A DNA stretch of 30,023 bases from a virus (IMGVR_UViG_2778261270_000003), one strand, 5' to 3'; shown: positions 1-15,950, counted from the stretch's first letter. The notes: a model not told the origin generated them from the letters alone. Made by a program: numbers and translations.

Positions 1-19
1 CTATTTGATAAATATTAAA

Positions 20-1315
20 TTAATTTTTCATTGCTTCGTTATGGGGCATGGTTGGGGCAAACTCGCTTAACTGTGTATTTAACAAAGCTACCTGTGCATT
101 ATTGTTTTCAGACATCCATTTTCCGTATACCTGAAATACCATTTGCGCATCTGCATGGCCCATCTGGTTTGCTATAAATGCCGGGTTAGCACCAGCTGTC
201 AGCGACCAGCAGGCATAAGTATGTCTCGACTGATATGATTTTCGATGGCGGAGTCCGGCACGTTTTATCGCTGCGTCCCACATCTGCCTTATTGAGTCAA
301 CGGTAAAATGGTCACCATAATTTTTTACTCTCGCTGACACTTCAGGTTGAAAAACAAAGGTGCATTTTTGTTTTTCTGTTCTGCCATACTCTCTGAGGTG
401 AACATCAATGATATGCTCTTTGCTCAGTCTCGTTAATGTCATCTGACTCCGGAGAGCGTCGATTGCTGGCTTAATAAGATGAATGACCCGATTGGTTCCC
501 GCCTGTGTTTTTGGTACCGTGAAACGGTCTTTTGCTAAATTTCTCCTGATCATCATTGTTCCATTTTTCAGATCTATGTCCTCCCATCCAAGTGCACACA
601 GCTCACCAGGGCGAACTCCAGTATAAACAGAAACACACCATAAATTTTTTGCTTGCTGATTTCTGCACGCATCGATAAGACGGATAAATTCTTCCCGCGA
701 AAGAGGATCCGGAATGGTTCTTGATTCCTTTAATGGCGAGATCCCCTTAAACGGATTATCTGCCAGGTAACCGTTATCAACACCAAACTGGAACACGGCG
801 TTAAGATTTGTCATGTAATTATTTACAGTTACAGCCGATCTCCCTGGTTGTGTAACAATATAGTTACTTTTGGGGATCTGGTATCCAGTCAGTAACTCTT
901 TACGAACCTCCAGTAATTTTTCTTTATTAATCGATGAGGCAAGATTTTTTTCACCGATTATGCTCAGGATATTTTTGATGACGGCACGGTATGTGTTGAG
1001 TGATGTTTTGGCGACTTCAGTTTCTTTCAGTGCCAGAAATTTTTCAGCCAGTTCTTTTATGGTTAAATCTTGTCGGGCCTCACCAAATTTTTCCAGATTG
1101 CGTGAGGAGGGAAACTGTTTTGCATAGTCGAAAACACCAGTTTTTATTGCGTAACAAACAGAGGAGCGTAGTTCACCTGCAACGCGCCTGTTTTTTGCTG
1201 TGTCAGGAACCCCCAGATTTTCCCTGACTCTTACGTCTTTATAAACAAACCAGATACGTAATTTCCCTCCATGGTTTTCCACGCCTGTCGGATATTTCAT
1301 TTCAACTTCTCTCAT
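20..1315 (-). CDS. Phage tyrosine integrase (site-specific recombinase)
   Basis: 431-aa ORF at the prophage edge. C-terminal region has tyrosine-recombinase-like motifs (SRHTYACW ... HADAQMVFQVYGKW). Canonical position next to an excisionase-like gene. Alternative ATG at 1300 (MKYPTG...). Confidence 0.85.
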   Translation of the reverse strand: MREVEMKYPTGVENHGGKLRIWFVYKDVRVRENLGVPDTAKNRRVAGELRSSVCYAIKTGVFDYAKQFPSSRNLEKFGEARQDLTIKELAEKFLALKETEVAKTSLNTYRAVIKNILSIIGEKNLASSINKEKLLEVRKELLTGYQIPKSNYIVTQPGRSAVTVNNYMTNLNAVFQFGVDNGYLADNPFKGISPLKESRTIPDPLSREEFIRLIDACRNQQAKNLWCVSVYTGVRPGELCALGWEDIDLKNGTMMIRRNLAKDRFTVPKTQAGTNRVIHLIKPAIDALRSQMTLTRLSKEHIIDVHLREYGRTEKQKCTFVFQPEVSARVKNYGDHFTVDSIRQMWDAAIKRAGLRHRKSYQSRHTYACWSLTAGANPAFIANQMGHADAQMVFQVYGKWMSENNNAQVALLNTQLSEFAPTMPHNEAMKN

Positions 1316-1334
1316 TAGTTAGTGTGGCTTTTAG

Positions 1335-1586
1335 TCAAGTAAGATGACGTCTTGGTCTCGCTGATGCCTGGCGCTCAATCCAGCGATCAATTTCTTCCAG
1401 GTTGTAAAAGCATGGACTGTTATCCCATGGCATACCGTCATGAGCGACATGCTTATATTCCCTTCCTTCCATAAACGATTTTTCCCGGGCCTTTTTTAAC
1501 GTACCTTTTTTTATTCCTTTCAGCGCAATTAACTGCTCTTCGGATACCCATTTGCCGGGAGAGACAATCATGATTACTTCGCTCAT
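1335..1586 (-). CDS. Excisionase-like small DNA-binding protein
   Basis: 83-aa ORF immediately upstream of int on the same strand, basic C-terminus (RQASARPRRHLT). Assignment is by position and size; start may be an internal Met (MIVSPGK...). Confidence 0.55.
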   Translation of the reverse strand: MSEVIMIVSPGKWVSEEQLIALKGIKKGTLKKAREKSFMEGREYKHVAHDGMPWDNSPCFYNLEEIDRWIERQASARPRRHLT

Positions 1587-1658
1587 CGATTTCTTTATCT
1601 CTTACATCAGACGAGCGCCGGTTGCAGAATACCAGTCACAACCGGCGACAGTTGAACA

Positions 1659-4145
1659 TTAAGAATCAGCCTGACTCGGGATCAGTTTTTGCCAGATAAC
1701 TGAAACGTATTTTGCCTGGTAACGGGCGTCATCAAGTGCATTATGGCGCTCACCTTCGAATGGAATAGCCGTTCTGGCATCGAAGTCTATGGCTTTCCCC
1801 AGCTCAACGATTGTGCGTACATCGCGATCGTTGTAGTAACGCCACGGGCAGGGGATCCCCTGCCGTTCGTATGAACGGCGCAAAATCGTGTTGTCGAAGT
1901 TGGCTCCATTTCCCCAAACCTGAACAAAAAATTCACCGGAGTTTTCGTCGATAAATTCTCGCAATTGTAACAGTGCATCATCTAACGGGATTTCATCGGT
2001 CATAATGGCAGATTGCGCTTCGCGTGATTGCTTAAGCCACCATTTAATGGTGTCCCGATCAATGACTCCGCCAGCAGTTTCCAGATCGATAGTCTTACTA
2101 AATTCCGGTCCCATATCTCCGGTTTGCGGATCGAAAAATATTGCACCTATTGAGATGATCGGGGCATCAGGATTTTTTCCCATGGTTTCAAGGTCGATCA
2201 TTAGATGGTCACACGTCCTGCTGGTGGATGTGATTTCGTGATGACCGTTCACCTTAATTGGGTGATCTGCCGTCTCGCCAGTTTCATTATCGCTATTGTG
2301 ATGCTGATTGCCGCCAGTGTTCTCCTTGTGTGGATGTTCAGCGCCTTCCATTTCCTCCGGATCATCTTCCTGAACTTCAACCTGATACTCTTCATCGAAT
2401 GTTTCTTGGTATGTTGCGTCGCCCATCACCGCGCCACAATCAGGGCAGTTGCCGCCGCCGGTCTGACCGCAGGCGGTGCAGACTTTTTCCACTTCCTGTT
2501 GCGCTACTGGTTCAGGCTGTTTCGTTTCTGGCTCGTTTTGTAACGCATTTGGACTGTTTTGTTCCGCTTTTTGGTAGTTCCGTTCCGATTCATGCTGGTT
2601 CTGGTTCACAGAATCGCGGGTCTGGAGCCCCTTAACCCATTTCGGATCATTCGGGTCACTAATCCCTTCAACAAATTCACCACGTGATGCAGCAAGCAAC
2701 TTATCGGCGTCAGGCTGGCTGATATTGGCTGCCTGCATAATTTTGTTTACTTCGTCAGCGGTAACTTTTATCGGCTCTGGTTGTTCTGAATCTTCAGCGG
2801 TATCTACATTTTGCGGTAAGCCCGTGTATGTGCCATTTTTTCGGGCAAAATATTCTTCTTTTGTGATTTCAGTGGCGCCAGCAGCCAGTGCCTTATCCAG
2901 ACCAGAGAGTTTGTTTGCGCGACCGTATTTTTCTCCGTCCTTATCTGCGAAGAGGAAATAGAACGGCCCCTCACGCTCTACAGATGGTTCAGCTTCCGGC
3001 GCGGTTTCATTTTTTGGGATATCAGATACCTCAGTTTCCACTGCATCAGTTTGTGTTTCTGATGACTGGAGAACATCAACAGTGCCCAGGTCTGTTTCTT
3101 CATTCTCAAACACGCCCTTTGTCGTCAGGTATTCGCAGATATATTTGTTCAGTGCTACGGGATCTTTGTGAATGTCGATCGGACGCTCACGGACAAGGCC
3201 AAAAATAGTTTGGCGGTCGTAGCGAAGGGCATCAGGCTGTTTGCGCATTGATGCCGAGATACGCTTCCAGTCTTCGCGGTCGTTGTCGATAACTTCTTTT
3301 TTTGCCCAGCGATGGATGCTGCCGTCAATGTTTCCGGCATCCACATCACTAGGCCAGAGAGCGTAGGCCAGTTCGTCATCCAGTGTTTTCCATGTCTGCT
3401 TGTATTCGCGATGAATGGCAGCAATGACCGGGCTGATTTTTCCTGTTGAATTTTCAGTGTACTGTTGATTGGCTCTGGCGCGGGCGAGATCAACAACAGA
3501 CGTGTATTTTCCGGTTTCCTTGCGTTCACCTTCGCGACGTTTTTTCCAGATGCGCATCTCTGCCTGAATTTCGGGCCATTTAGCACCAGGAATACATTTA
3601 TGCTTAACCCACCCAATGGCGTGCAACTTAAGCTCCGGATACATGGCGTTAACTTCTGGCATTTTCATCAACGCTTCAACGATATGTCCGTCGAATGTTG
3701 CCATGTCTTCCTGCAACAATTCCTGTGCGCTAATAACCATATCAACGGTGATGTTTTCACATGTGTCGAACTTAACCATGACAGCGTTCTGTACTTCAGG
3801 GGCCAGCTTGTCAAAAGTGACGTTCATCGGATCGGATTCAGTCTCAACCGGGACAAAAGAAGCAGACTCCTCATCCCAGCGGTTTTCCTGCATATATTCA
3901 GCATCCCATGAATCGAGGGCAGGGCGGGGTATGCCAGGTTTATCCTCGCAGACAATAAATTTATAAGCGCAGTCCTGAGCAGCCGGATAATGTTCCAGGA
4001 ATTGCCAGTGAAATTTTGCTCGAGCACGGCGTTCGTCGCCAGCTTCAATGGCTGTGGCTACAGCCACAGCGCCTTCTTCCCTTGTTGCCAGTTCGTCAGG
4101 AATAGCGGCGCAAATAAAGACTTTACTCATTTGTTTTAACCTCAT
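1659..4145 (-). CDS. Large prophage exonuclease with C-terminal DnaQ-like DEDDh 3'-5' exonuclease domain; central zinc ribbon and acidic linker
   Basis: 828-aa ORF. C-terminal Exo I (MIDLETMG), Exo II (NGANFDNTIL) and Exo III (HNALDDARYQAKY) motifs. Zinc-ribbon-like CTACGQTGGGNCPDCG and long acidic low-complexity segments. Probable start at ATG 4130 (MSKVF..., GAGG 9 nt upstream) rather than 4145. Confidence 0.8.
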   Translation of the reverse strand: MRLKQMSKVFICAAIPDELATREEGAVAVATAIEAGDERRARAKFHWQFLEHYPAAQDCAYKFIVCEDKPGIPRPALDSWDAEYMQENRWDEESASFVPVETESDPMNVTFDKLAPEVQNAVMVKFDTCENITVDMVISAQELLQEDMATFDGHIVEALMKMPEVNAMYPELKLHAIGWVKHKCIPGAKWPEIQAEMRIWKKRREGERKETGKYTSVVDLARARANQQYTENSTGKISPVIAAIHREYKQTWKTLDDELAYALWPSDVDAGNIDGSIHRWAKKEVIDNDREDWKRISASMRKQPDALRYDRQTIFGLVRERPIDIHKDPVALNKYICEYLTTKGVFENEETDLGTVDVLQSSETQTDAVETEVSDIPKNETAPEAEPSVEREGPFYFLFADKDGEKYGRANKLSGLDKALAAGATEITKEEYFARKNGTYTGLPQNVDTAEDSEQPEPIKVTADEVNKIMQAANISQPDADKLLAASRGEFVEGISDPNDPKWVKGLQTRDSVNQNQHESERNYQKAEQNSPNALQNEPETKQPEPVAQQEVEKVCTACGQTGGGNCPDCGAVMGDATYQETFDEEYQVEVQEDDPEEMEGAEHPHKENTGGNQHHNSDNETGETADHPIKVNGHHEITSTSRTCDHLMIDLETMGKNPDAPIISIGAIFFDPQTGDMGPEFSKTIDLETAGGVIDRDTIKWWLKQSREAQSAIMTDEIPLDDALLQLREFIDENSGEFFVQVWGNGANFDNTILRRSYERQGIPCPWRYYNDRDVRTIVELGKAIDFDARTAIPFEGERHNALDDARYQAKYVSVIWQKLIPSQADS

Positions 4146-4623
4146 CTATAACAACCGGTTCGCTACGTCGCCTCGTACTACTGATAATGCTCATCTTGAT
4201 GTGCACCATTCTGAAGAGGAACTGGGTTATATCTTCAGCCTACAGGCGAAGCGCGTTCTGTCTAAAAATCTCACTTTCCAGTACAAAAGCAGTGCGTTTC
4301 AGGTACGCAGTGAGGGCCGGGGATATCGACTTAGGCATTCGGTTGTTACTGTATGCGAGAACTTTGACGGTGAAATTAACGTTCTGTATGACGGGAAAGC
4401 GCTGGGCTGGGAAAAGTATGTTGATGGCCCGGAGCCTATACCACTGGATGATGAAAAGAGTGTCCATGAACGAGTGGATAATGCCCGTATTGATTTACGC
4501 TCAAAATACTATGTTAAACCTAAAGCTGACCATCCCTGGCTTACGCGCCGAACGCAAAGTCATCAGCAAGTTAAGCCCCCGAAGTTACCTAAAAAGAAGC
4601 CTGATCCCGATAAAAAAGATTGA
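4048..4623 (+). other. Orphan ORF / possible gene remnant at the exo-flxA junction (identity unknown)
   Basis: 191-aa ORF whose ATG lies antisense inside the exonuclease 5' end; no internal Met; Lys/Pro-rich tail (KPPKLPKKKPDPDKKD). Sits where the immunity region would be expected. I could not place it in a family from the sequence. Confidence 0.25.
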
Positions 4624-5018
4624 AACCAAGATCGATTCGGTTGAGTGCATATCCATTCATAGGGTAGATTCTTAAGTCGCGTTTCTGGTGTTCATTTTCG
4701 GGTGGTTTGTTACTTGTTTTACCGGGGATATGCCAGAAACGCGCTGAGTCAGTCTGGGCGGTGCGCGTAATGAGGCGTTATGGTAAATAGCCTATGCTAA
4801 TGTCCGCTAAGAGCAAGAAGCGGAAGTTGGCAGTTTTGTGGACTGTCCCCACAAAAGTGACTACAGAAATAGTTGCAATTCATAATTGATCATGGGTTGT
4901 CAGTTAAACTCGTGGCGATTTAAATAGACTAATTGGGAGTGCGTCCATTACTTATATCTTGTAATGTTAACTATCAGAAATGATACAAAGATAATATGTC
5001 TTTAAAGAAAAGGCTGAT

Positions 5019-5045
5019 GGCGAAAAGTGGCCCGATGAGGGCCAC
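5019..5045 (-). terminator. Rho-independent terminator downstream of flxA
   Basis: Perfect 7-bp GC-rich stem GTGGCCC/GGGCCAC with 5-nt loop (5027-5045), followed on the minus strand by a TTTT run; lies just past the flxA stop. Confidence 0.5.
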
Positions 5046-5059
5046 AATACGGCTGTCAC

Positions 5060-5392
5060 TTAGACGTAAATATCAATGGTGCCAGCGGTATTTGTATCGT
5101 CTTTTTTCTCTTCTTTTTTATCAGGCTGAACTGTCGCGTCTTCATTCTTTTTCTCTGCCTGCTGCCTTAACAACTGCTCCAGTTGAGCCCAGAGGCTTTC
5201 AATTTGCTTCTGTACCAATGCAGCCATTTCTTTTTTCTGCTGTGTCGTCATCCCCTCTTCCGATGAGATTTTCCCAAGCTTTTCAGTCAGCACCTGAATT
5301 TGTCTTGTGATTTTGGCTATTTCTGATGTTCCTTCCGGGGCGGAGTTGTTTGAAATAACGGTTGAGGTATTTCCCTGAATTGTGACAGACAT
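5060..5392 (-). CDS. flxA: FlxA (FliA-regulated prophage protein)
   Basis: 110-aa product MSVTIQGNTSTVISNN... matches my recollection of E. coli Qin-prophage FlxA essentially throughout; a sigma-28 promoter lies immediately upstream. Confidence 0.9.
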   Translation of the reverse strand: MSVTIQGNTSTVISNNSAPEGTSEIAKITRQIQVLTEKLGKISSEEGMTTQQKKEMAALVQKQIESLWAQLEQLLRQQAEKKNEDATVQPDKKEEKKDDTNTAGTIDIYV

Positions 5393-5415
5393 AGATTTCT
5401 CCTTTTAAAAAAGCA

Positions 5416-5442
5416 CTATCGGCATGCACAAAAAAATCTTTA
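5416..5442 (-). promoter_or_regulatory. Sigma-28 (FliA) class 3 flagellar-type promoter for flxA
   Basis: Minus strand reads TAAAGATT-N11-GCCGATAG against the consensus TAAAGTTT-N11-GCCGATAA, about 25 nt upstream of the flxA ATG. Confidence 0.75.
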
Positions 5443-5594
5443 ATCGTATTTCTTGTGTCATTAATTGTTTGATGTTCAGATTGTTTTCCTCGCGGGCTGG
5501 CGCGCCTCAGAAAGTAAAGCTTGTTGACAGGGGTAAACGTTCGGCAATAATTTTCTGCCGCATGCGGGTGTTGCATAAAACGTGTTACGTTCCT

Positions 5595-5900
5595 TTATCG
5601 ACAGGTCAGGTCACCGCTCACCCGCCGACGAGAAAGCAACACTGACATGCTAAAGCAAAAAATAGATGAATAAGTTGAGTTGTGCATATGTAGCCTGACC
5701 GTCACAAAGTATATGGTGTCTGTACCAGTAAGATGATGGCCGGACTCTTTAAAAACGAGCTGACCTGCACAATACAGGATGGACTTAGCAATGGCTGCTC
5801 CTGGCACAAAGCGGACAGTGATCACCGTTCTTACGACTACTTTCTGACTTCCTTCGTGACTTGCCCTAAGCATGTTGTAGTGCGATACTTGTAATGACAT
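5595..5900 (-). CDS. Hypothetical protein (ydfV-like position and length)
   Basis: 101-aa ORF between flxA and relB, the slot and length I recall for Qin YdfV. Low-complexity product, overlaps the relB promoter region, no convincing RBS checked. Confidence 0.3.
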   Translation of the reverse strand: MSLQVSHYNMLRASHEGSQKVVVRTVITVRFVPGAAIAKSILYCAGQLVFKESGHHLTGTDTIYFVTVRLHMHNSTYSSIFCFSMSVLLSRRRVSGDLTCR

Positions 5901-5924
5901 TTGTAATTACAAGAGGTGTAAGAC
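5860..5924 (+). promoter_or_regulatory. relBE promoter/operator region
   Basis: Palindromic TTGTAAT/ATTACAA repeats (CTTGTAATGACATTTGTAATTACAAG, about 5889-5913) directly upstream of a GAGGTG Shine-Dalgarno and the relB ATG; typical RelB operator architecture. Confidence 0.6.
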
Positions 5925-6164
5925 ATGGGTAGCATTAACCTGCGTATTGACGATGAACTTAAAGCGCGTTCTTACGCCGCGCTTGAAAAAATGGGTGTAA
6001 CTCCTTCTGAAGCGCTTCGTCTCATGCTCGAGTATATCGCTGACAATGAACGCTTGCCGTTCAAACAGACACTCCTGAGTGATGAAGATGCTGAACTTGT
6101 GGAGATAGTGAAAGAACGGCTTCGTAATCCTAAGCCAGTACGTGTGACGCTGGATGAACTCTGA
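5925..6164 (+). CDS. relB: RelB antitoxin
   Basis: 79-aa product MGSINLRIDDELKARSYA...VRVTLDEL matches recalled E. coli RelB; overlaps relE by ATGA. Confidence 0.95.
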   Translation: MGSINLRIDDELKARSYAALEKMGVTPSEALRLMLEYIADNERLPFKQTLLSDEDAELVEIVKERLRNPKPVRVTLDEL

Positions 6165-6451
6165 TGGCGTATTTTCTGGATTTTGACGAGCGGGCACTAA
6201 AGGAATGGCGAAAGCTGGGCTCGACGGTACGTGAACAGTTGAAAAAGAAGCTGGTTGAAGTACTTGAGTCACCCCGGATTGAAGCAAACAAGCTCCGTGG
6301 TATGCCTGATTGTTACAAGATTAAGCTCCGGTCTTCAGGCTATCGCCTTGTATACCAGGTTATAGACGAGAAAGTTGTCGTTTTCGTGATTTCTGTTGGG
6401 AAAAGAGAACGCTCGGAAGTATATAGCGAGGCGGTCAAACGCATTCTCTGA
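6164..6451 (+). CDS. relE: RelE mRNA interferase toxin
   Basis: 95-aa product MAYFLDFDERALKEWRKLGSTVREQLKKKL... matches recalled RelE; translationally coupled to relB. Confidence 0.95.
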   Translation: MAYFLDFDERALKEWRKLGSTVREQLKKKLVEVLESPRIEANKLRGMPDCYKIKLRSSGYRLVYQVIDEKVVVFVISVGKRERSEVYSEAVKRIL

Positions 6452-6522
6452 ACCAAAGCATGACATCTCTGTTTCGCACCGAAGGTGACACTTCTGCTTT
6501 GCGTTGACAGGAGAAGCAGGCT

Positions 6523-6678
6523 ATGAAGCAGCAAAAGGCGATGTTAATCGCCCTGATCGTCATCTGTTTAACCGTCATAGTGACGGCACTGGTAACGAGG
6601 AAAGACCTCTGCGAGGTACGAATCCGAACCGGCCAGACGGAGGTCGCTGTCTTCACAGCTTACGAACCTGAGGAGTAA
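6523..6678 (+). CDS. hokD: Hok-family membrane toxin (HokD/RelF)
   Basis: Not in the ORF track (<60 aa). 51-aa ORF MKQQKAMLIALIVICLTVIVTALVTRKDLCEVRIRTGQTEVAVFTAYEPEE with N-terminal transmembrane helix and the Hok signature; third gene of the relBEF arrangement. Confidence 0.85.
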   Translation: MKQQKAMLIALIVICLTVIVTALVTRKDLCEVRIRTGQTEVAVFTAYEPEE

Positions 6679-6746
6679 GAGACCCGGCGGGGGAGAAATC
6701 CCTCGCCACCTCTGATGTGGCAGGCATCCTCAACGCACCCGCACTT

Positions 6747-6775
6747 AACCCGCTTCGGCGGGTTTTTGTTTTTAT
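6747..6775 (+). terminator. Rho-independent terminator after hokD
   Basis: AACCCGC-TTCG-GCGGGTT hairpin followed by TTTTTGTTTTT. Confidence 0.6.
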
Positions 6776-6894
6776 TTTCAACGCGTTTGAAGTTCTGGAC
6801 GGTGCCGGAATAGAATCAAAAATACTTAAGTAGCGCGCAGGGATAAGAGGGATGGTCCCTTAAAGGGGAGAGCTAATTATCCGGAAGGATTCTG

Positions 6895-7146
6895 ATGATG
6901 AACATCGAAGAACTGCGTAAAATTTTTTGTGAAGATGGCCTCTATGCTGTGTGCGTTGAAAATGGAAATCTTGTTAGTCATTACCGCATTATGTGTTTGC
7001 GAAAGAATGGGGCTGCGTTAATTAATTTTGTGGATGCTCGGGTCACGGACGGATTTATCTTGCGCGAAGGTGAGTTTGTCACTTCATTACAGGCATTGAA
7101 AGAGATCGGAATAAAAGCTGGCTTTTCTGCTTTTTCAGGAGAATAA
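6895..7146 (+). CDS. rem: Rem-like small prophage protein
   Basis: 83-aa ORF MMNIEELRKIFCEDGLYAVCVENGNLVSHYR...; matches my recollection of Qin Rem in size and sequence; GGAAGG RBS upstream. Confidence 0.75.
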   Translation: MMNIEELRKIFCEDGLYAVCVENGNLVSHYRIMCLRKNGAALINFVDARVTDGFILREGEFVTSLQALKEIGIKAGFSAFSGE

Positions 7147-7212
7147 ACTCATCTACAATCTTGCGCGGGGCTGAACTCCCGCTGAGTAACACCGTGCCAC
7201 CGGAGAAAACCG

Positions 7213-7491
7213 ATGGCACGCAACGCAAAATATTACAATTCTGATAATTCGCCCGTTCTTGCCTGCACGCACGGGCGGTATTCTCACGCATTCAAGTCTG
7301 AATGGTTCCAGCACCCTCCATGCACTGCAGAACAGGCCGAATGGCTGATTCATTCTTACCGCAGGCGCGGGTTCGAGGTTAAGAAAGCTCTCAGTCTCGA
7401 CTATCGGCACTGGATAATCTCTGTCAGGCTGCCTTATTCCGAACGCCCACCACGTGCGTCCCGCACTTTCCAGCAACGGATCTGGAGGTAA
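7213..7491 (+). CDS. Hypothetical protein, translationally coupled to the downstream DUF968 gene
   Basis: 92-aa ORF with ATG start and GGAGAA RBS; its stop codon sits inside the GGAGG Shine-Dalgarno of the next gene (stop 7489-7491, next start 7493). No family recognised. Confidence 0.35.
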   Translation: MARNAKYYNSDNSPVLACTHGRYSHAFKSEWFQHPPCTAEQAEWLIHSYRRRGFEVKKALSLDYRHWIISVRLPYSERPPRASRTFQQRIWR

Positions 7492-7492
7492 C

Positions 7493-8542
7493 GTGCGGGT
7501 ATTACTTAGACCTGTTCTGGTGCCTGAGCTTGGGCTGGTGGTCCTTAAGCCGGGCCGTGAATCCATACAGATATTTCATAATCCTCGAGTGCTGGTGGAA
7601 CCGGAACCAAAAAGCATGCGTAATCTGCCATCCGGAGTCGTTCCTGCCGTTCGCCAGCCGCTGGCGGAAGACAAAACATTGCTGCCGTTTTTTAGTAACG
7701 AACGGGTGATTCGTGCTGCTGGCGGCGTTGGCGCATTGTCCGACTGGCTATTACGTCATGTTACATCCTGCCAGTGGCCTAATGGCGATTACCATCACAC
7801 TGAAACAGTCATTCACCGTTATGGTACCGGCGCAATGGTGTTGTGCTGGCACTGCGACAACCAACTGCGTGACCAGACATCGGAATCACTGGAGCTGCTT
7901 GCTCAACAAAATCTGACAGCATGGGTGATTGACGTCATCCGTCACGCAATAAGCGGTACGCAGGAGCGGGAATTATCTTTGGCTGAATTATCCTGGTGGG
8001 CGGTCTGCAATCAGGTGGTGGATGCACTACCTGAGGCTGTATCGCGTCGTTCGCTGGGATTACCAGCGGAAAAAATCTGCTCGGTGTACCGCGAAAGCGA
8101 CATCGTACCGGGAGAGCAGACCGCCACCAGCATATTGAAACAACGCACAAAAAATCTTGCACCGTTGCCTTACGCCCACCAGCAACAAAAATCACCACAG
8201 GAAAAGACGGTGGTAAGCATCACCGTTGATCCAGAGTCTCCGGAATCTTTCATGAAGCTGCCTAAACGTCGCCGCTGGGTTAAGGAGAAATACACACGTT
8301 GGGTTAAGACACAGCCGTGTGCTTGCTGCGGTATGCCAGCCGACGATCCGCATCATCTGATTGGTCACGGGCAGGGCGGAATGGGAACAAAAGCACATGA
8401 TCTCTTTGTGTTGCCTTTGTGCAGAAAGCATCACAACGAGCTGCATACGGATACAGTGGCATTTGAAGATAAGTATGGCTCCCAACTGGAGCTGATATTT
8501 CGTTTTATCGATCGCGCGCTGGCAATTGGCGTACTGGCGTAA
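7493..8542 (+). CDS. ydfU: YdfU-like DUF968 protein with C-terminal HNH-type zinc-binding nuclease motif
   Basis: 349 aa from GTG 7493 (GGAGG RBS); the track ORF begins at an upstream in-frame GTG 7454. C-terminus CACCGMPADDPHHLIGH...LPLCRKHHNELH is an HNH-like signature. Position between rem and Q as in Qin. Confidence 0.8.
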   Translation: MRVLLRPVLVPELGLVVLKPGRESIQIFHNPRVLVEPEPKSMRNLPSGVVPAVRQPLAEDKTLLPFFSNERVIRAAGGVGALSDWLLRHVTSCQWPNGDYHHTETVIHRYGTGAMVLCWHCDNQLRDQTSESLELLAQQNLTAWVIDVIRHAISGTQERELSLAELSWWAVCNQVVDALPEAVSRRSLGLPAEKICSVYRESDIVPGEQTATSILKQRTKNLAPLPYAHQQQKSPQEKTVVSITVDPESPESFMKLPKRRRWVKEKYTRWVKTQPCACCGMPADDPHHLIGHGQGGMGTKAHDLFVLPLCRKHHNELHTDTVAFEDKYGSQLELIFRFIDRALAIGVLA

Positions 8543-8555
8543 GTGGAGAACGAGC

Positions 8556-9308
8556 ATGAACCTTGAAGCCTTACCAAAATATTACTCCCCAAAATCTCCA
8601 AAATTGAGCGATGACGCTCCAGCGACAGGCACCGGTTGTTTAACAATTACGGATGTAATGGCAGCGCAGGGGATGGTGCAGTCGAAAGCACCACTTGGGT
8701 TGGCCTTATTTCTGGCAAAAGTTGGTGTTCAGGACCCTCAGTTTGCGATTGAAGGCCTGCTAAATTACGCGATGGCACTGGATAACCCGACATTGAACAA
8801 ATTGAGTGAAGAAATCCGGTTACAGATTATTCCTTACCTCGTGAGTTTTGCCTTTGCTGATTACTCCAGGTCTGCGGCAAGTAAGGCTCGCTGTGAGCAT
8901 TGTTCAGGTACGGGATTTTATAATGTATTGCGCGAAGTGGTGAAACACTACAGACGCGGGGAATCTGTAATCAAGGAAGAATGGGTGAAGGAACTATGTC
9001 AGCATTGCCATGGTAAGGGCGAAGCCAGCACAGCGTGCAGAGGGTGTAAGGGTAAAGGGATTGTTCTGGATGAAAAAAGAACCCGGTTTCATGGCGTACC
9101 GGTATATAAGATTTGTGGGCGTTGTAATGGAAACCGGTTTAGTCGTTTACCGACCACGCTGGCACGACGTCATGTCCAGAAGCTGGTACCAGACCTGACC
9201 GATTATCAGTGGTATAAGGGGTATGCGGACGTCATTGGTAAACTGGTAACAAAGTGCTGGCAGGAAGAAGCATACGCGGAAGCGCAATTGAGGAAGGTGA
9301 CGAGATAA
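8556..9308 (+). CDS. quuQ: Late-gene antiterminator Q
   Basis: 250 aa from ATG 8556 (track ORF begins at upstream TTG 8526). Cys-rich zinc-binding cluster CEHCSGTG...CQHCHGKGEASTACRGCKGKG typical of Q-family antiterminators; immediately upstream of a candidate late promoter. Confidence 0.85.
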   Translation: MNLEALPKYYSPKSPKLSDDAPATGTGCLTITDVMAAQGMVQSKAPLGLALFLAKVGVQDPQFAIEGLLNYAMALDNPTLNKLSEEIRLQIIPYLVSFAFADYSRSAASKARCEHCSGTGFYNVLREVVKHYRRGESVIKEEWVKELCQHCHGKGEASTACRGCKGKGIVLDEKRTRFHGVPVYKICGRCNGNRFSRLPTTLARRHVQKLVPDLTDYQWYKGYADVIGKLVTKCWQEEAYAEAQLRKVTR

Positions 9309-9339
9309 ATGATTTTTGCTGAAGATGGCGACATGATGT

Positions 9340-9368
9340 TTGCATTTTTCAAAAAATATGGATAAAAT
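9340..9368 (+). promoter_or_regulatory. Candidate late promoter (pR'-like)
   Basis: TTGCAT-17 nt-TAAAAT, 32 nt after the Q stop, followed about 45 nt downstream by an intrinsic terminator; the usual Q-utilisation arrangement. Confidence 0.4.
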
Positions 9369-9413
9369 TTTTTCAACGATGGGCTTTGTATACCCGACGT
9401 TAAGAAAAAGTAG

Positions 9414-9437
9414 AAAACCCGCTGATGAGCGGGTTTT
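9414..9437. terminator. Bidirectional intrinsic terminator (tR'-like on plus; cspF terminator on minus)
   Basis: AAAACCCGC-TGATGA-GCGGGTTTT: GC stem flanked by an A-run and a T-run, so it is terminator-like in both orientations. Confidence 0.55.
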
Positions 9438-9729
9438 GTGCTTTAAATGGGGCAATGGTAATGTTGAATCTCATCCCGGGACTCATGTCTGTTAACTTAT
9501 TATTTAGCTGGTGACTTGGTTATTTGCCTGATGTTTAAAATGTTTTCTTCCAGTACAATGTCCCTAAACACAATGAGTCTGCTTATTATATTATTAGCAG
9601 AGCTATTACGGCCAAAGTACAGCATAAGCTTTTAAAGCCAATCAACCAGTCATCAAGACAGACGGGGTTATTCATAAAAACTCTCCATGTGTGATCCGAT
9701 GGGGCCTGAAATTAAAGCTTTAATATAGC

Positions 9730-9942
9730 TCATGAAAGGTAAACATTGGCAGCTGAAGGGCCACGCAGACCATTTATCCGGCAAAATTCCACGCGTAATC
9801 CGGTGGTAATTTCTTCTGCATCGCGGAGATTGAGCGCTGAAACATGAAGCTGGACATCGATACGACCATCGGATGGGGTGATAAGACCCTTGCCGCTTTT
9901 GCCGTCAAAGGTTTTGACAATTCCTGTCATTTTACGGGACAA
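9730..9942 (-). CDS. cspF: Cold-shock-domain protein (CspF/CspH-type, non-canonical RNP motifs)
   Basis: 70-aa product [26 protein letters not shown]...; cold-shock-domain fold, divergent from the adjacent cspB as in Qin. Confidence 0.9.
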
Positions 9943-10242
9943 AAAAATTCCTTAATACTGATAACTTGGCGCACTATACACACGTTCCTGAAGAAAGCTA
10001 TAGTTTTTTGATGGGGTTGAAGATGGCTGGATGTCTAAAATAAACATTGCTTCATATGTTCAACTATGCGTTAATGATTGCGTCGGTTTGAAGAACAGAC
10101 GATATACGAAGTAGTTTACTAAAGCAGTTCTCATTTCAGGTGTTATTCACTTATTCCTTCTTTGAGTCTCTCCAATTAAGTACGAAGTCGTTTCTGTTAT
10201 GCAAACCATTTATGCCGAAAGGCTCAAGTTAAGGAATGTAGA

Positions 10243-10458
10243 ATGTCAAATAAAATGACTGGTTTAGTAAAATGGTTTAACGCTGATAAAGGTTTCGGCT
10301 TTATTTCTCCTGTTGATGGTAGTAAAGATGTGTTTGTGCATTTTTCTGCGATTCAGAATGATAATTATCGAACCTTATTTGAAGGTCAAAAGGTTACCTT
10401 CTCTATAGAGAGTGGTGCTAAAGGTCCTGCAGCAGCAAATGTCATCATTACTGATTAA
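10243..10458 (+). CDS. cspB: Cold-shock protein CspB
   Basis: 71-aa product [37 protein letters not shown]... with RNP1/RNP2 motifs; long AT-rich 5' leader. Confidence 0.9.
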
Positions 10459-10739
10459 AATTCATCGCTCGTCTGTATACGATAACGAAGAAGGCTGATG
10501 CCTGAGTAGAGATACGGACAGAGTAGTGAATATTGGATCTCTTTAATAAAAAGTAAGGAGGTCCAATACATGAAACAATGGCTAGCATATTTGGCAAAAT
10601 CTTAATCAGGAAAAGTATGCTAACCATTGTGGTGAAGTGCAGGTTTGCTGCATGAATAGTTTTACAGCAGAAGCTAACTGCTGGCATGGCAAAACAAAGT
10701 GCGTAAGTGGATGACTCCCACAAAAAGCACCACAATCTC

Positions 10740-10763
10740 AAACCCGCTCAGGCGGGTTTTTTA
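10740..10763 (+). terminator. Rho-independent terminator downstream of cspB
   Basis: AAACCCGC-TCAG-GCGGGTTTTTT. Confidence 0.65.
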
Positions 10764-10821
10764 TTATCTGCTTTAAATATATTATTAAAATATAAAAAAT
10801 ACTTGTTACTAATAAAATCAA

Positions 10822-10992
10822 TCAGGCTACAGCTTTAAGATTTGTCTGGAATACTTTGTTGCAATGAGGGCAGATCAAAAGGGCACCTTTTTGTACTCTT
10901 GAAAAACTGTGTTCTGACTCTTGGGTGCAGTTTGGGCAGGAACATTTAACGAGATAATTACGGCGTGATTTTGAGTTTTTACGTTCTGACAT
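10822..10992 (-). CDS. Small zinc-ribbon protein (Com-like, C-x-C-P-x-C ... C-P-x-C)
   Basis: Track ORF 10822-11043; probable start at ATG 10992 with AGGAAAAG RBS, giving 56 aa MSERKNSKSRRNYLVKCSCPNCTQESEHSFSRVQKGALLICPHCNKVFQTNLKAVA. Four Cys in two knuckles and a basic N-terminus. Confidence 0.4.
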   Translation of the reverse strand: MSERKNSKSRRNYLVKCSCPNCTQESEHSFSRVQKGALLICPHCNKVFQTNLKAVA

Positions 10993-11211
10993 AGGCTTTT
11001 CCTGTATAAATGGCCGTATACAGTACACTAAATATGAAAACATTTCTCGTATTATTATTTTATATATGACTTTCTTTCAAAATAATTACCCACATTTTTA
11101 ATGTGTATGTTTTTTTAGCGCCGTTGAGAACAACGTGTGCTGTCAAAACTACCCCGTAGACTCCGATCTTTTCAAACATATTGCACCATCCGTGTACATC
11201 GGGGTGAGGAT

Positions 11212-11427
11212 ATGAAATCAATGGATAAGTTAACAACAGGTGTTGCCTATGGCACATCGGCGGGTAATGCTGGTTTCTGGGCATTGCAGTTACTCGATAA
11301 AGTAACTCCGTCACAGTGGGCTGCAATCGGTGTGCTGGGTAGCCTGGTTTTTGGCCTGCTGACGTATCTGACAAATCTTTATTTCAAGATTAAAGAAGAC
11401 AGGCGTAAGGCTGCGAGAGGAGAGTAA
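11212..11427 (+). CDS. essQ: Class II holin (phage 21 S-type pinholin) with MKSM dual-start motif
   Basis: 71-aa product [71 protein letters not shown]; two transmembrane domains and charged C-terminus; starts at Met1 and Met4. Confidence 0.9.
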
Positions 11428-11431
11428 TCCA

Positions 11432-11739
11432 ATGACTCAAGACTATGAACTGGTTGTGAAAGGAGTCCGTAATTTTGAGAATAAAGTTACGGTAACTGTA
11501 GCCTTACAGGACAAAGAACGCTTTGACGGTGAAATTTTTGACCTGGATGTCGCCATGGACCGTGTTGAAGGAGCTGCGCTGGAGTTTTATGAGGCAGCAG
11601 CCAGAAGGAGCGTCCGGCAAGTCTTCCTGGAAGTAGCAGAAAAATTGTCAGAAAAAGTTGAGTCTTATCTGCAGCATCAGTACTCCTTTAAGATTGAAAA
11701 TCCTGCCAATAAGCACGAGCGTCCTCATCATAAATATCT

Positions 11740-11743
<4 letters not shown>
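11432..11743 (+). CDS. ydfR: YdfR-like small protein of the lysis cassette
   Basis: 103-aa ORF between holin and endolysin, overlapping the endolysin start by ATGA; same size and position as Qin YdfR. Confidence 0.75.
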
Positions 11744-12767
<1,024 letters not shown>

Positions 12768-13129
12768 GGTAATATTAAATCGGAACATTTACATCGCGGA
12801 ATGTAAAATTTAAATAAAAAGGACTCTTCCATGAGCCAAAATTCCTGAAATCTTAAGGGTAAGATAAAAGGTCTTAATCAGAATGACACGTTTTATTAAT
12901 AAATAAAGCTATTCTTTCATTGCTGTGTTTTTCTTTACAAAAGTAATCCTTGCTATGGGTGGTTAATCATGCGTTAATGGTGTTCTGGTTTGTTACAAAT
13001 TTATCTGAAGCAGTCATTGTTATAATTTTATTATTTGTACCTCTTGAGATTTCCTTGTTGGTTTTTCTCTCTGATATTTTTTTTCGGACCATTCTGCCCA
13101 AGGGCTAATTTCTTCAAAAGGTAATAATT

Positions 13130-13342
13130 ATGTCTAACAAAATGACTGGCTTAGTGAAATGGTTTAACCCTGAAAAAGGTTTTGGTTTCATCACGCCGAA
13201 AGATGGCAGCAAAGATGTGTTTGTCCATTTCTCAGCAATTCAGAGCAACGATTTCAAAACATTAACTGAGAATCAGGAAGTTGAATTTGGTATTGAGAAC
13301 GGACCTAAAGGTCCTGCCGCTGTTCATGTAGTGGCGCTTTGA
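13130..13342 (+). CDS. cspI: Cold-shock protein CspI
   Basis: 70-aa product [42 protein letters not shown]...; long AT-rich leader upstream. Confidence 0.9.
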
Positions 13343-13370
13343 GGTAGACAATATTACAAACCATATTCAC

Positions 13371-13541
13371 TTTAGATGCCCGTGTTGTCATGGTTCCCAG
13401 TATAGAACATCATCTTTTGATGTTTCTGACATGAATCCTTTCGGGGCAAAATGTATCTTTTGTAAATCAATGATGATTACATTTGATAATATTTCACAAT
13501 ACTTAAATGCCAGCCGTCTGTCGTTGGATTTAAAAAAGTGA
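13371..13541 (+). CDS. Small Cys-rich (CPCC...CIFC) zinc-ribbon-like ORF; start uncertain
   Basis: Open frame ...FRCPCCHGSQYRTSSFDVSDMNPFGAKCIFCKSMMITFDNISQYLNASRLSLDLKK* ending at 13539-13541. Only in-frame ATG is 13431, after the first Cys knuckle; may use a non-ATG start or be a remnant. Confidence 0.3.
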   Translation, partial: FRCPCCHGSQYRTSSFDVSDMNPFGAKCIFCKSMMITFDNISQYLNASRLSLDLKK

Positions 13542-13613
13542 AAATGAAGGCTCCTTCGGGAGCTTTTTTGCTTGGTGTCTATTCGATGGATACTCACATA
13601 CTACGGTAACATC

Positions 13614-13844
13614 ATGAAAAAAATCATAGTTTTTTTTAACTCTGAACCAGCAGTGGTAGTGCCAGCGATGACTGGAGTTAACACCATCATGCGTGAATAT
13701 CCAAATGGCGAAAAAACACACCTTACTGTAATGGCCGCAGGGTTTCCATCTCTGACCGGAGATCATAAAGTCATTTATGTAGCCGCGGATCGACATGTTA
13801 CTTCAGAAGAAATTCTGGAAGCAGCAATAAGGCTCTTGAGTTGA
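13614..13844 (+). CDS. YnfO-like small prophage protein
   Basis: 76 aa from ATG 13614 (MKKIIVFFNSEP...); track ORF starts at an upstream in-frame codon 13572. Position matches the Qin cspI/gnsB neighbourhood. Confidence 0.55.
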   Translation: MKKIIVFFNSEPAVVVPAMTGVNTIMREYPNGEKTHLTVMAAGFPSLTGDHKVIYVAADRHVTSEEILEAAIRLLS

Positions 13845-14012
13845 TTTGATGCTATTGCATTGATAATTCAGGAAAATTCTCTTTGTCTGTTTGTGTAAAA
13901 TTTAGACTATCGTATGTTGATTATTGCGATGTTTCATCTTATCTTTTACACGTTTGCACCATATAATCGACTTACTGTGTAACTGGAAAGTCATAACAGA
14001 CTAAAAGAGGAA

Positions 14013-14189
14013 ATGATGAATATTGAAAACTTAAAAACAAAAGCAGAAGCAGATATTTCTGAATATATAACAAAAAAAATTATTGAACTTAAGAAAAAGA
14101 CCGGGAAAGAAGTTACCAGTATTCAGTTTACCGCACGGGAAAAAATGACGGGTCTTGAAAGCTATGATGTCAAGATTAATTTAATCTGA
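14013..14189 (+). CDS. gnsB: GnsB (secG/fabA suppressor family)
   Basis: Not in track (<60 aa). MMNIENLKTKAEADISEYITKKIIELKKKTGKEVTSIQFTAREKMTGLESYDVKINLI; tandem ATG (14013/14016); AGAGGAAA RBS. Confidence 0.85.
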   Translation: MMNIENLKTKAEADISEYITKKIIELKKKTGKEVTSIQFTAREKMTGLESYDVKINLI

Positions 14190-14218
14190 TGTATTCAATA
14201 ATAAAATTTATCCATAAA

Positions 14219-14241
14219 CCTCGTTTTTACGGGGTTTTGTT
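14219..14241 (+). terminator. Weak intrinsic terminator after gnsB
   Basis: CCTCG-TTTTTA-CGGGG (one G:U pair) followed by TTTTGTTATATTT. Confidence 0.4.
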
Positions 14242-14340
14242 ATATTTGAATGGTTCCGAATATCTAAATCACAATTGTTGATGGTTTTTATTAAACCAAT
14301 GCAGTCCGGCTCAGGAGTGAGAGAAGCCGGACGTTATGGT

Positions 14341-14751
14341 TTAGCGTGGTAAGATCTGTGTAGTTTTCTGGATGCTTTCAGTAAATAGTAATGAATTATC
14401 AAAGGTATAGTAATATCTTTTTTGTTCGTGGATATTTGTAACCCACCGAAAAACTCCTGCTTTAGCAAGGTTTCTTCTGTATTCCTGAAATGTGATCTCT
14501 CTGGATTTCAGCTTATTAGAGGTCGTTTCTATAAGATGCCTATCCTTTGAAAATTTGACAGACACAATGTTTTTTAGGCCCTTTAATAACACTGTATTAT
14601 CATTTTTTAATACAATATGAACATTCTCTGTGGCTAAATAGTAAATGTAATGTGAGACATTGTGACGTTTTAGCTCAGAATAAAACCATTGATAGTTTAA
14701 ATCGTTTCGAACTTTATCAAATATTTGTTTAAAAATGACTACCTGATCCAT
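14341..14751 (-). CDS. ydfO: YdfO (DUF1398-family prophage protein)
   Basis: 136 aa from ATG 14751 ([14 protein letters not shown]..., GGAAGG RBS); track ORF begins 5 codons upstream. Matches size and position of Qin YdfO. Confidence 0.8.
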
Positions 14752-14808
14752 AGATAAACCTTCCATGTGATATGAGGGGGCGTAGTCTGCACGATTATCT
14801 AAATTGCT

Positions 14809-15042
14809 TCAATCTGGTCTGACCTGTTTTCTGAGCAATTCAGTAATGTCACTCTTTTCTTTGTTTGCTTCAGAAGAAACTCTTTTTTCTGAGCACAGTC
14901 TCCGGCGGCAGGCTTCAATGACCCAGGCTGAGAAATTCCCGGACCCTTTTTGCTCAAGAGCGATGTTAATTTGTTCAATCATTTGGTTAGGAAAGCGGAT
15001 GTTGCGGGTTGTTGTTCTGCGGGTTCTGTTCTTCGTTGACAT
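14809..15042 (-). CDS. Small ribbon-helix-helix-like DNA-binding protein (DUF3950/YlcI-like, NFS motif)
   Basis: 77 aa; basic N-terminal tail then RNIRFPNQMIEQINIALEQKGSGNFSAWVIEACRRRL, which reads as beta-strand / helix / G-x-N-F-S turn / helix. Sits 57 nt upstream of ydfO on the same strand and abuts the cos region. Confidence 0.55.
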   Translation of the reverse strand: MSTKNRTRRTTTRNIRFPNQMIEQINIALEQKGSGNFSAWVIEACRRRLCSEKRVSSEANKEKSDITELLRKQVRPD

Positions 15043-15214
15043 GAGGTTGCCCCGTATTCAGTGTCGCTGATTTGTATTGTCTGAAGTTGTTTTTACGTTA
15101 AGTTGATGCAGATCAATTAATACGATACCTGCGTCATAATTGATTATTTGACGTGGTTTGATGGCCTCCACGCACGTTGTGATATGTAGATGATAATCAT
15201 TATCACTTTACGGG

Positions 15215-15420
15215 TCCTTTCCGGTGATCCGACAGGTTACGGGGCGGCGACCTCGCGGGTTTTCGCTATTTATGAAAATTTTCCGGTTTAAGGCGTTTCC
15301 GTTCTTCTTCGTCGTAACTTAATGTTTTTATTTAAAATACCCCCTGAAAAGAAAGGAAACGACAGGTGCTGAAAACGGGCTTTTTGGCCTCTGTCGTTTC
15401 CTTTCTCTGTTTTTGGCCGT
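15215..15420 (+). other. cos site (cosQ-cosN-cosB); 12-nt cohesive end GGGCGGCGACCT at 15242-15253
   Basis: ...CGGGTCCTTTCCGGTGATCCGACAGGTTACG | GGGCGGCGACCTCGCGGGTTTTCGCTATTTATG... reproduces the phage lambda right-end/left-end junction as I recall it, followed by the Nu1-binding cosB region and Nu1. Confidence 0.9.
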
Positions 15421-15430
15421 GGAATGAACA

Positions 15431-15950
15431 ATGGAAGTCAACAAAAAGCAGCTGGCTGACATTTTCGGTGCGAGTATCCGTACCATTCAGAACTGGCAGG
15501 AACAGGGAATGCCCGTTCTGCGAGGCGGTGGCAAGGGTAATGAGGTGCTTTATGACTCTGCCGCCGTTATAAAATGGTATGCCGAAAGGGATGCTGAAAT
15601 TGAGAACGAAAAGCTGCGCCGGGAGGTTGAAGAACTGCGGCAGGCCAGCGAGGCAGATCTCCAGCCAGGGACTATTGAGTACGAACGCCATCGACTTACG
15701 CGTGCGCAGGCCGACGCACAGGAACTGAAGAATGCCAGAGACTCCGCTGAAGTGGTGGAAACCGCATTCTGTACTTTCGTGCTGTCGCGGATCGCAGGTG
15801 AAATTGCCAGTATTCTCGACGGGATCCCCCTGTCGGTGCAGCGGCGTTTTCCGGAACTGGAAAACCGACATGTTGATTTCCTGAAACGGGATATCATCAA
15901 AGCCATGAACAAAGCAGCCGCGCTGGATGAACTGATACCGGGGTTGCTGA

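Follow-up and report, generated by a model that had tools for sequence, protein, structure and literature searches.

The window, that is, the whole 30,023-nucleotide stretch of viral DNA analyzed here, carries from left to right int, xis, the gene for an 823-aa exonuclease, 478 bp of an ISNCY transposase pseudogene, flxA, ydfV, relBE, hokD, rem, ydfU and Q (Table 1), followed by the late genes from essD through tail protein T, whose reading frames are all intact. Altogether, 42 of the 42 retained coding sequences are intact, and int/xis, Q, lysis, cos and morphogenesis functions are present for the part that lies within the window, the tail tip and fibers being located past position 30,023, and the right end of the prophage likewise falling outside the window. 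An earlier, sequence-only reading had described positions 4146-8556 as an orphan ORF in about 0.9 kb followed by flxA, relBEF, rem, ydfU and Q, and had considered the head, tail, cos, lysis and Q modules intact. Gene calls and annotation agree on both counts, with every in-window reading frame of these modules whole and the cosN site exact.

Two of its gene assignments did not hold. What was read as exo is a protein with a DEDDh 3'-5' exonuclease domain, not of the lambda-Exo or RecE type. The 191-aa orphan ORF (4048-4623), in turn, does not represent a true gene but arose as an artefact when the deletion described below joined the tail of the transposase pseudogene, in frame, to 98 nt from the opposite strand of the exonuclease start. 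The ISNCY remnant (4146-4623) matches the phrog_8463 transposase (E=1.8e-22) and has no Pfam match, and its final 150 bp (4474-4623) correspond to ydfW in the K-12 annotation. The adjoining spacer gave no family match in a six-frame Pfam search; K-12 Qin shares this spacer and the flxA block at 100% identity across a 2,350-bp alignment. A weak promoter-like match lies at 6787-6816, upstream of rem.

Table 1. Features of the window, numbered from its first nucleotide.
Feature	Position	Strand	Remarks
Integrase	20-1300	-	Intact; annotated length in relatives 426 aa (longest ORF extends to 1315); Pfam Phage_integrase, Arm-DNA-bind_2
Excisionase	1335-1586	-	Intact; Pfam DUF1233 (putative excisionase)
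823-aa "exonuclease"	1659-4130	-	C-terminal DEDDh 3'-5' domain; Pfam Rv2179c-like, E=2.4e-67; phrog_2082; longest ORF has its ATG start at 4143-4145
Deletion junction	4145-4146	.	7,212 bp of L003 (7146-14357) missing
ISNCY (IS1202/ISEsa1-like) transposase pseudogene	4146-4623	+	Truncated, last 478 bp of the frame; RefSeq annotation of identical DNA
Non-coding spacer	4624-5059	.	Identical to the ydfW-flxA spacer of L003
Terminator-like hairpin of flxA	~5026-5044	-	Fold of 4995-5062(-): -17.9 kcal/mol, z=-2.65
flxA	5060-5392	-	Pfam FlxA
ydfV	5595-5900	-	Gene call and annotation
relB	5925-6164	+	Pfam RelB; toxin-antitoxin operon 5925-6678
relE	6164-6451	+	Pfam ParE_toxin; toxin-antitoxin operon
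hokD/relF	6523-6678	+	Annotation of identical DNA
Predicted intrinsic terminator 3' of hokD	6747-6764	+	7-bp stem, 5 GC pairs, then T-run; z=-2.66
rem	6895-7146	+	Part of the rem-to-ydfU block 6895-8542
92-aa ORF	7213-7491	+	Between rem and ydfU
ydfU (DUF968/HNH-like)	7493-8542	+	ORF, Pfam/PHROG scans
Q antiterminator (ydfT/quuQ)	8556-9308	+	Intact; Pfam Antiterm, E=4e-54
lambda cosN 12-mer, exact	15242-15253	+	Upstream of nohA

Family Membership and the Deletion Junction

Judged by its sequence, the window belongs to a Qin-family lambdoid prophage, of the lineage of the phage record PhiR42_1 (PV340562.1, host ECOR13) and of the rspB-side prophage of the E. coli O55:H7 strain USDA5905 (NZ_CP039837.1), whose genome is the closest complete one. 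Gene order is the same in all three from int to the tail genes, and both relatives share with the window the ISNCY remnant, the relBE-hokD insert, Q, the lysis cassette, and lambda-type cos and head genes. The left arm (1-4145) is 100% identical to PhiR42_1 and differs from USDA5905 by a single SNP (one mismatch against L003 3001-7145), and the right arms of the two relatives are 98.6% and 99.9% identical to that of the window, respectively. The flxA-to-Q block, csp genes, P21-type lysis cassette, and lambda-type cos and head genes expected of the family are all present and collinear. In USDA5905, rspB lies 188 bp to the left of the prophage, and the host flank of the window itself is beyond its edge. 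We found no literature on PhiR42_1.

What separates the window from these relatives is a 7,212-bp early region, which both keep and of which the window has nothing. Base-by-base extension from both sides places the join exactly, with window positions 4145 and 4146 corresponding to 7145 and 14358 of L003, and the additional 7,212 bases occur precisely at this point in both USDA5905 and PhiR42_1, where the segment is 99.9% identical in the latter. To the right of the join, 4146-28000 differs from L003 (from 14358) by 37 substitutions and no indels, with zero differences over 4146-12959. Since what is absent amounts to one defined block of 7,212 bp that near-identical prophages possess, chance is not the explanation. 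The sequence-only suggestion of a deletion derivative is borne out, with breakpoints now defined by alignment to Qin-like prophages. Because the retained genes are all intact and the flanks are nearly free of SNPs, the deletion is recent. The dicA/dicC pair and the dicBF operon, otherwise expected of a Qin-family member, belong to the deleted block, and their absence is a loss inside the Qin lineage rather than the sign of a separate lineage.

The two ends meet bluntly and share 0 bp of microhomology. On the left, 15 nt of upstream sequence separate the exonuclease start codon from the breakpoint, with the coding sequence and its GAGG ribosome-binding site both retained, and the right breakpoint falls mid-frame within the dead ISNCY transposase gene. 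A blunt join of this kind would be consistent with homology-independent illegitimate recombination. Homologous or microhomology-mediated deletion was rejected given the 0-bp overlap, as was an IS-mediated adjacent deletion, since neither breakpoint coincides with an IS end and an active IS is absent at the junction. A recombinant of two different prophages was likewise rejected, as both arms match the same relatives at ~98.6-100%. The left breakpoint also directly abuts the ATG with which the longest exonuclease ORF begins, lying exactly one base outside it, which is an odd coincidence that we counted against reading the junction as a natural deletion.

The allele, marked by the 34-mer TTTGTTTTAACCTCATCTATAACAACCGGTTCGC, is known from the window alone: a megablast search of 5,426 complete E. 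coli genomes did not recover the junction, which was not found either in genome and metagenome contigs (two exact patterns) or in viral contigs (one pattern), and its fusion protein has no exact match among 153 billion gene positions. The allele is thus private. These absences (0 of 5,426 genomes, none of three contig collections, and no record of the fusion ORF), together with the zero-microhomology join flush with the longest-ORF ATG and flanks essentially identical to intact relatives, are also what would be expected if the junction were not biological, but rather an assembly error, a chimeric join, or an in silico or laboratory removal from a prophage of the PhiR42_1/USDA5905 type. We consider this unlikely. 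Assembler collapse occurs at repeats, and the two ends share no sequence; the right end (L003 14358) matches no ORF or annotation boundary, which is unexpected in a designed deletion; and there is neither a scar nor an N-run. Furthermore, the window is set apart from every database genome by SNPs of its own and a mosaic patch (22299-23100), and thus comes from an unsampled strain in which a private deletion is unremarkable. Comparable deletions have also arisen naturally in three other strains and in K-12.

Content of the Missing Segment and Search for Its Functions

In the relatives, the missing segment holds ydfD, dicB, the DicF gene, ydfCBA, dicA, dicC, genes for a CII-like YdaT, an O-like initiator, a Ren-like protein and a methyltransferase, as well as the 5' part of the ISNCY remnant. 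Pfam detects HTH_3/Phage_CI_repr (DicA), P22_Cro (DicC), YdaT, DUF977 and DicB in this segment, PHROG assigns "replication initiation O-like" (phrog_391, E=1e-91), "CII-like" and "Ren-like" functions, and Rfam finds DicF and a sok-like element in the relative only. DicA and DicC serve as the immunity locus and keep the toxic dicBF operon repressed (PMC10448788). This block is the rule in the family: all 60 of the closest genomes keep at least 6.3 kb at this position (at least 26.3 kb spanned for a 20-kb query), 262 genomes carry at least 80% of the missing segment, and the HannyBb and mEp460_ev081 phage records cover 46-50% of it at ~96% identity, with repressor and replication-type genes annotated within the matching part. 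Since dicA/dicC, the two early promoter regions and the O-like initiator are all in place in intact relatives, it is excluded that absence of such genes is the normal state of the family.

The layout resembles that of lambda in its logic, with an int-xis-exo left arm, a divergent repressor/Cro pair with operators, CII-like and O-like genes, and then Q and the late genes. The lambda template applied in the sequence-only reading is accordingly appropriate for repressor/Cro, early promoter regions and replication, all of which the intact relatives have, but not for N and an annealase, neither of which is Pfam-recognizable in the segment even of intact family members. A further difference is that DicA is short and without a RecA cleavage site, and dicBp is not inducible by mitomycin C even in K-12 (PMC10448788), such that mitomycin C is a poor induction test for a DicA-type prophage.

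In the window, none of these functions was recovered. A Pfam scan of 79 six-frame stop-to-stop segments from 1-15,970 (at least 35 aa within 4000-5100 and at least 70 aa elsewhere) contained no HTH_3, CI, Cro or replication family, including around 4146-5060, where no repressor or HTH domain was found, while the same method, applied to the segment of the relative as a positive control, detected HTH_3, Phage_CI_repr, P22_Cro, YdaT, DUF977 and DicB. This is in agreement with the earlier observation that no HTH repressor pair or replication initiator is visible. RelB is the sole DNA-binding regulator detected in 1-15,970, and PHROGs run on the main ORFs gave no repressor or replication gene. Across the whole window, Rfam reported only two cspA thermoregulator leaders, with DicF absent. 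A DicA-operator palindrome (TGTTAG-N6-CTAACA, at most 2 mismatches) has three occurrences near dicA in the relative and none in the window, although this ad hoc motif, taken from the dicA-dicC spacer, constitutes weak evidence. Thus, of the attributes of a functional phage, neither a repressor/Cro pair with operators nor a replication initiator with an origin was found in the window, the O-like gene being in the relative only; as in a defective prophage, the immunity, early-promoter and replication modules are lost in comparison to intact relatives.

Other Deletions at the Qin Locus

Size variation of Qin has been documented (PMC6379469). K-12 Qin occupies the same chromosomal site by rspB as the window, and its flxA-ydfV-relBE-hokD-rem-ydfU-Q block is 100% identical. 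It carries an early-region deletion of its own (L003 9852-14650), with its right end in the ISNCY remnant (ydfX/ydfW junction), and has lost the replication genes while retaining dicA/dicC and dicBF; its int and exo are disrupted by IS2, and it is without most head and tail genes (PMC10448788). The window is the reverse of K-12, having lost immunity and dicBF but kept int, xis, exo and the late genes in intact form.

The Qin-like prophages of 2020CK-00188, ZYB62 and MEI7BO1-21 are also missing dicA/dicC and the replication genes between the exonuclease and flxA. Their deletions begin between DicF and dicB (L003 ~7683), leaving dicB and ydfD promoterless, and have junctions with 2-5 bp of overlap, whereas that of the window is blunt and starts 0.5 kb further to the left. 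The deletions in K-12 and these three genomes are independent of that in the window. The right ends fall in the ISNCY remnant in the window, in K-12 and in the three other genomes; we do not take this to mark a hot spot, since only right ends close to that region were detectable with the queries used. In the window and the three other genomes, a small set, dicA is never lost in a natural deletion without the dicB promoter being lost as well. This agrees with the established view that silencing of the toxic dicBF operon is the only task for which DicA is required.

Probable Consequences for the Prophage

Taking these observations together, it is highly probable that a single, recent, strain-private 7,212-bp deletion turned a Qin-family prophage defective, or "grounded" it. 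The deletion took three units at once: the pL-type operon (dicBp, ydfA/B/C, the DicF sRNA, dicB and ydfD), the repressor pair dicA/dicC with its operators, and the pR-type operon as far as the IS remnant (YdaT, the O-like initiator and presumably the origin, the Ren-like DUF977 protein and the methyltransferase). There would then be nothing remaining to repress or induce, int, xis and exo would be deprived of their early promoter, and the element would be incapable of replication after excision. The relBE promoter is the only known co-directional promoter upstream of Q, and the strong predicted terminator after hokD stands between it and rem-ydfU-Q. Judging from the missing promoters and this terminator, Q would no longer be reached by the early rightward transcript, and the intact lysis, head and tail operon would be silent. 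The weak promoter-like match ahead of rem counts against such silence.

The sequence-only reading had also allowed for control from an unconventional place, for which we found nothing supporting, the window containing neither a repressor nor an operator-like site. In its fullest form, this would be an element that is still a controlled functional unit regulated from elsewhere, with the late operon serving as a module for particles and lysis that has been domesticated or depends on a helper, which we regard as very unlikely. Q, the lysis cassette, cos and all in-window head and tail genes are indeed intact; however, their intactness is explained by the recency of the deletion (0 SNPs in 4146-12959) and permits no conclusion about selection. 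The candidate sources of such control are read-through from the RelB/RelE-autoregulated promoter into rem-ydfU-Q (relBE points in the direction of Q from ~2.6 kb upstream), a FliA-dependent flxA transcript entering exo-xis-int (after the deletion, flxA is co-directional with these genes and 0.9 kb upstream of exo), and regulators or Q supplied in trans by a co-resident prophage. Against these sources, a strong predicted terminator follows hokD, flxA has a terminator hairpin of its own, operator-like sites and extra regulators are absent from the window, and the relBE-to-Q block is unchanged in intact relatives and K-12, such that nothing there is new. That the deletion rewired the element, with late genes expressed via read-through from the stress-responsive relBE promoter or the Q of a co-resident lambdoid prophage, as an incipient GTA-like or satellite-like module, is extremely improbable. 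A domesticated particle producer or helper-dependent satellite would have structural genes that stayed under purifying selection long after phage autonomy was lost and that came under host or helper control, and there is no sign of such long-term retention here, since the nearly SNP-free flanks and the private allele make the deletion recent.

Returning to the deletion as the origin of a defective prophage, the late genes would be usable only if a related phage recombined with the element or activated them in trans. The prophage should therefore be labeled defective despite its complete-looking late genes. The breakpoints are base-exact, and the deletion is one more independent early-region loss at the Qin locus, all of which has little import beyond annotation. 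Should the strain be available, the element could be used, as a natural "late genes only" lambdoid prophage, for studying trans-activation and marker rescue by related phages.

The deletion junction and its origin

ORF mapping, family scans and comparison with annotated genomes identify the window as a Qin-family lambdoid prophage and uphold the gene calls made earlier from the sequence alone (see table). In near-identical relatives rspB lies directly left of the prophage, and all 42 retained coding sequences that could be checked are intact.

Features of the window prophage (window coordinates)
Feature	Position	Strand	Remark
int	20-1300	-	
xis	1335-1586	-	
'Exonuclease', 823 aa	1659-4130	-	longest ORF to 4145
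Chimeric ORF, 191 aa	4048-4623	+	made by the deletion
ISNCY/IS1202-like transposase pseudogene, 478 bp	4146-4623	+	tail is K-12 'ydfW'
K-12 'gene' ydfW	4474-4623	+	last 49 codons of truncated ISNCY transposase frame
Spacer, 436 bp	between transposase pseudogene (ends 4623) and flxA (from 5060)		
flxA	5060-5392	-	
Sigma-70-like match	5524-5551	+	TTGACA-16-AATAAT, 11/12
ydfV	5595-5900	-	
relB, relE, hokD	5925-6678		hokD, 6523-6678
Intrinsic terminator (predicted)	6747-6764		strong; 3' of hokD
rem	6895-7146		
92-aa ORF	between rem and ydfU		
ydfU	7493-8542		
Q (ydfT/quuQ)	8556-9308		
csp genes, P21-type lysis cassette, cosN, lambda-like head and tail genes	after Q		
cspA-type thermoregulator leaders (two)	10082-10474, 12984-13369	+	Rfam RF01766; 5' of prophage-borne cspB, cspI
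Lambda cosN 12-mer	15242-15253		exact match

When the window was compared by megablast with 5,426 complete E. coli genomes, the best matches (O55:H7 USDA5905, cq9, U90 and 14EC029; 99.8-99.9% identity) each had 25 kb of query spread over ~32.2 kb. Extending the alignment one base at a time from either side puts the break exactly at window 4145|4146, equivalent to 7145|14358 in L003, the USDA5905 locus (NZ_CP039837.1), with 7,212 bp missing. Against L003 there is a single mismatch over the 4,145 bp of the left arm; the right arm shows 37 substitutions and no indels in 23.9 kb, most of them within a mosaic patch at 22299-23100 and none in 4146-12959. The phage record PhiR42_1 (PV340562.1; host ECOR13) matches the left arm at 100% identity and carries the missing segment at 99.9%. 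This near-absence of SNPs relative to intact relatives shows that the deletion is recent, and the intactness of the late genes is therefore uninformative on selection. About 30 of the 38 substitutions relative to the closest genome fall in the 0.8 kb of the patch, which spans FI, FII and the last part of the major capsid gene and was probably acquired by recombination with another lambdoid prophage.

Not one base is common to the two sides of the join. Blunt joins of this kind point to homology-independent illegitimate recombination, and the bluntness here suggests that origin. The exact junction occurs in none of the 5,426 genomes and, searched as a 34-mer and a 22-mer, is absent from GTDB species-representative contigs, JGI metagenome contigs and IMG/VR. 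The 191-aa fusion ORF (32 complete codons plus 2 bases of the next, lying antisense to the start of the exonuclease and fused in frame to the transposase tail) likewise has no record in the gene-position index or in any public gene catalogue searched. The allele is private to the window's source. A unique, blunt junction that directly abuts the ATG opening the longest exonuclease ORF could also be produced by misassembly, chimera formation or deliberate excision, but the ends carry no repeat, the right end coincides with no ORF or annotation boundary, and the window has SNPs and a mosaic patch of its own and so comes from an unsampled strain; we consider an artefact quite unlikely.

The missing immunity and replication genes

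In intact relatives, the missing segment encodes ydfD (lysis protein), dicB and DicF sRNA; ydfC, ydfB and ydfA with the pL-like promoter dicBp; the short CI/C2-like HTH repressor dicA and the P22 Cro-like dicC; a YdaT-family protein, CII-like per PHROGs; a 321-aa O-like replication initiator (phrog_391, E=1e-91); a DUF977/Ren-like protein and a small methyltransferase; two pseudogenes and a sok-like RNA element; and ~0.8 kb from the 5' end of the ISNCY transposase pseudogene, with HTH and integrase-core parts. At this position each of the 60 best-matching genomes has an additional 6.3 kb or more, and in 262 genomes at least 80% of the segment is present. Matches to the phage records HannyBb and mEp460_ev081 extend over 46-50% of it at ~96% identity, with repressor and replication-type genes among the features annotated there. 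Since the segment holds dicA, dicC and O-like genes, the Qin family normally has immunity and replication modules here, which speaks against the refutation named in the sequence-only reading, that the family ordinarily lacks them. The sok match (Rfam, 104 bits, L003 13277-13448, +) lies immediately to the left of the ISNCY remnant and hints at a hok/sok locus that has decayed; hokD in the window has no adjoining sok match.

The sequence-only reading had seen no immunity, N or replication module at 4146-8556 and proposed either a deletion derivative or control from an unconventional place. Six-frame stop-to-stop segments of window 1-15,970 (minimum length 35 aa within 4000-5100 and 70 aa outside it) gave no Pfam match to HTH_3, CI, Cro or replication-initiator families, RelB being the sole DNA-binding regulator detected, while the same procedure matched HTH_3, Phage_CI_repr, P22_Cro, YdaT, DUF977 and DicB in the relatives' segment, which confirms the absence. 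Rfam finds DicF and the sok-like element in the relative only. An operator-like palindrome, weak evidence as the motif was self-derived from the dicA-dicC spacer, has three matches near dicA in the relative but none in the window. With a 7,212-bp deletion mapped to the base and the repressor, early promoters and replication genes gone, the first option holds; no positive evidence for unconventional control was found in the window, and we regard it as highly improbable.

The lambda template behind that expectation fits the family in part: immunity and replication genes do belong here, but neither N nor an annealase is Pfam-recognisable in the segment, even in intact relatives, and 'exo' is not lambda-type. 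Annotated 'exonuclease' or 'exodeoxyribonuclease VIII', it carries at its C terminus a DEDDh 3'-5' exo(ribo)nuclease domain (Pfam Rv2179c-like, E=2e-67), a different nuclease type from lambda Exo and RecE, behind a long N-terminal part without assigned domain.

Comparable deletions in other strains

Qin size varies among strains (PMC6379469). K-12 Qin has its own independent deletion (L003 9852-14650 missing), yielding the ydfX|ydfW junction, ydfX being the YdaT/CII-like gene fragment it left. Further independent deletions run from L003 ~7684 to 13404 in 2020CK-00188, 13769 in MEI7BO1-21 and 14743 in ZYB62. Every dicA-removing deletion found here also removes dicBp, consistent with published work in which DicA silences the toxic dicBF operon (PMC10448788); losing dicA along with dicBp is compatible with viability.

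Breakpoints recur in other genomes at L003 7679-7684, in the DicF-dicB interval (also L001 7080-7084, L006 2582-2583 and L007 2584-2586, loci of other genomes). In three strains ...TTAACGCCGGAT(A) is joined to three different points 5.7-7.1 kb away (L003 13405, 13770 and 14744), and in further genomes from a spread sample (H210, H212, H213) the match ends at 7679-7684 from either side. This position looks like a module boundary or recombination hot spot.

Consequences for transcription and phage function

The window has lost the repressor, Cro, both early promoter/operator regions, the CII-like gene, the O-like initiator and the toxic dicBF-ydfD genes, and retains the exonuclease start codon with its GAGG ribosome-binding site. 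Lacking pL- and pR-type promoters, the element would offer no target for repression or induction; its int, xis and exo genes would be left without an early transcript, and it would be unable to replicate. With the early rightward transcript no longer reaching Q, silence of the late operon is expected. Of the co-directional promoters 5' of Q, that of relBE is the nearest, but the strong terminator predicted at 6747-6764 follows hokD. flxA is now directed at exo from 0.9 kb away, but has its own predicted terminator hairpin. The region's best sigma-70-like match, between flxA and ydfV, runs antisense through ydfV toward relB. Since DicA has no RecA cleavage site and K-12 dicBp responds to antirepressor, urea and heat, not to mitomycin C (PMC10448788), mitomycin C induction would be uninformative here.

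The window thus carries a real, exactly mapped, recent and private deletion that renders an otherwise complete Qin-family prophage defective: a new allele, produced by a kind of event already well known.
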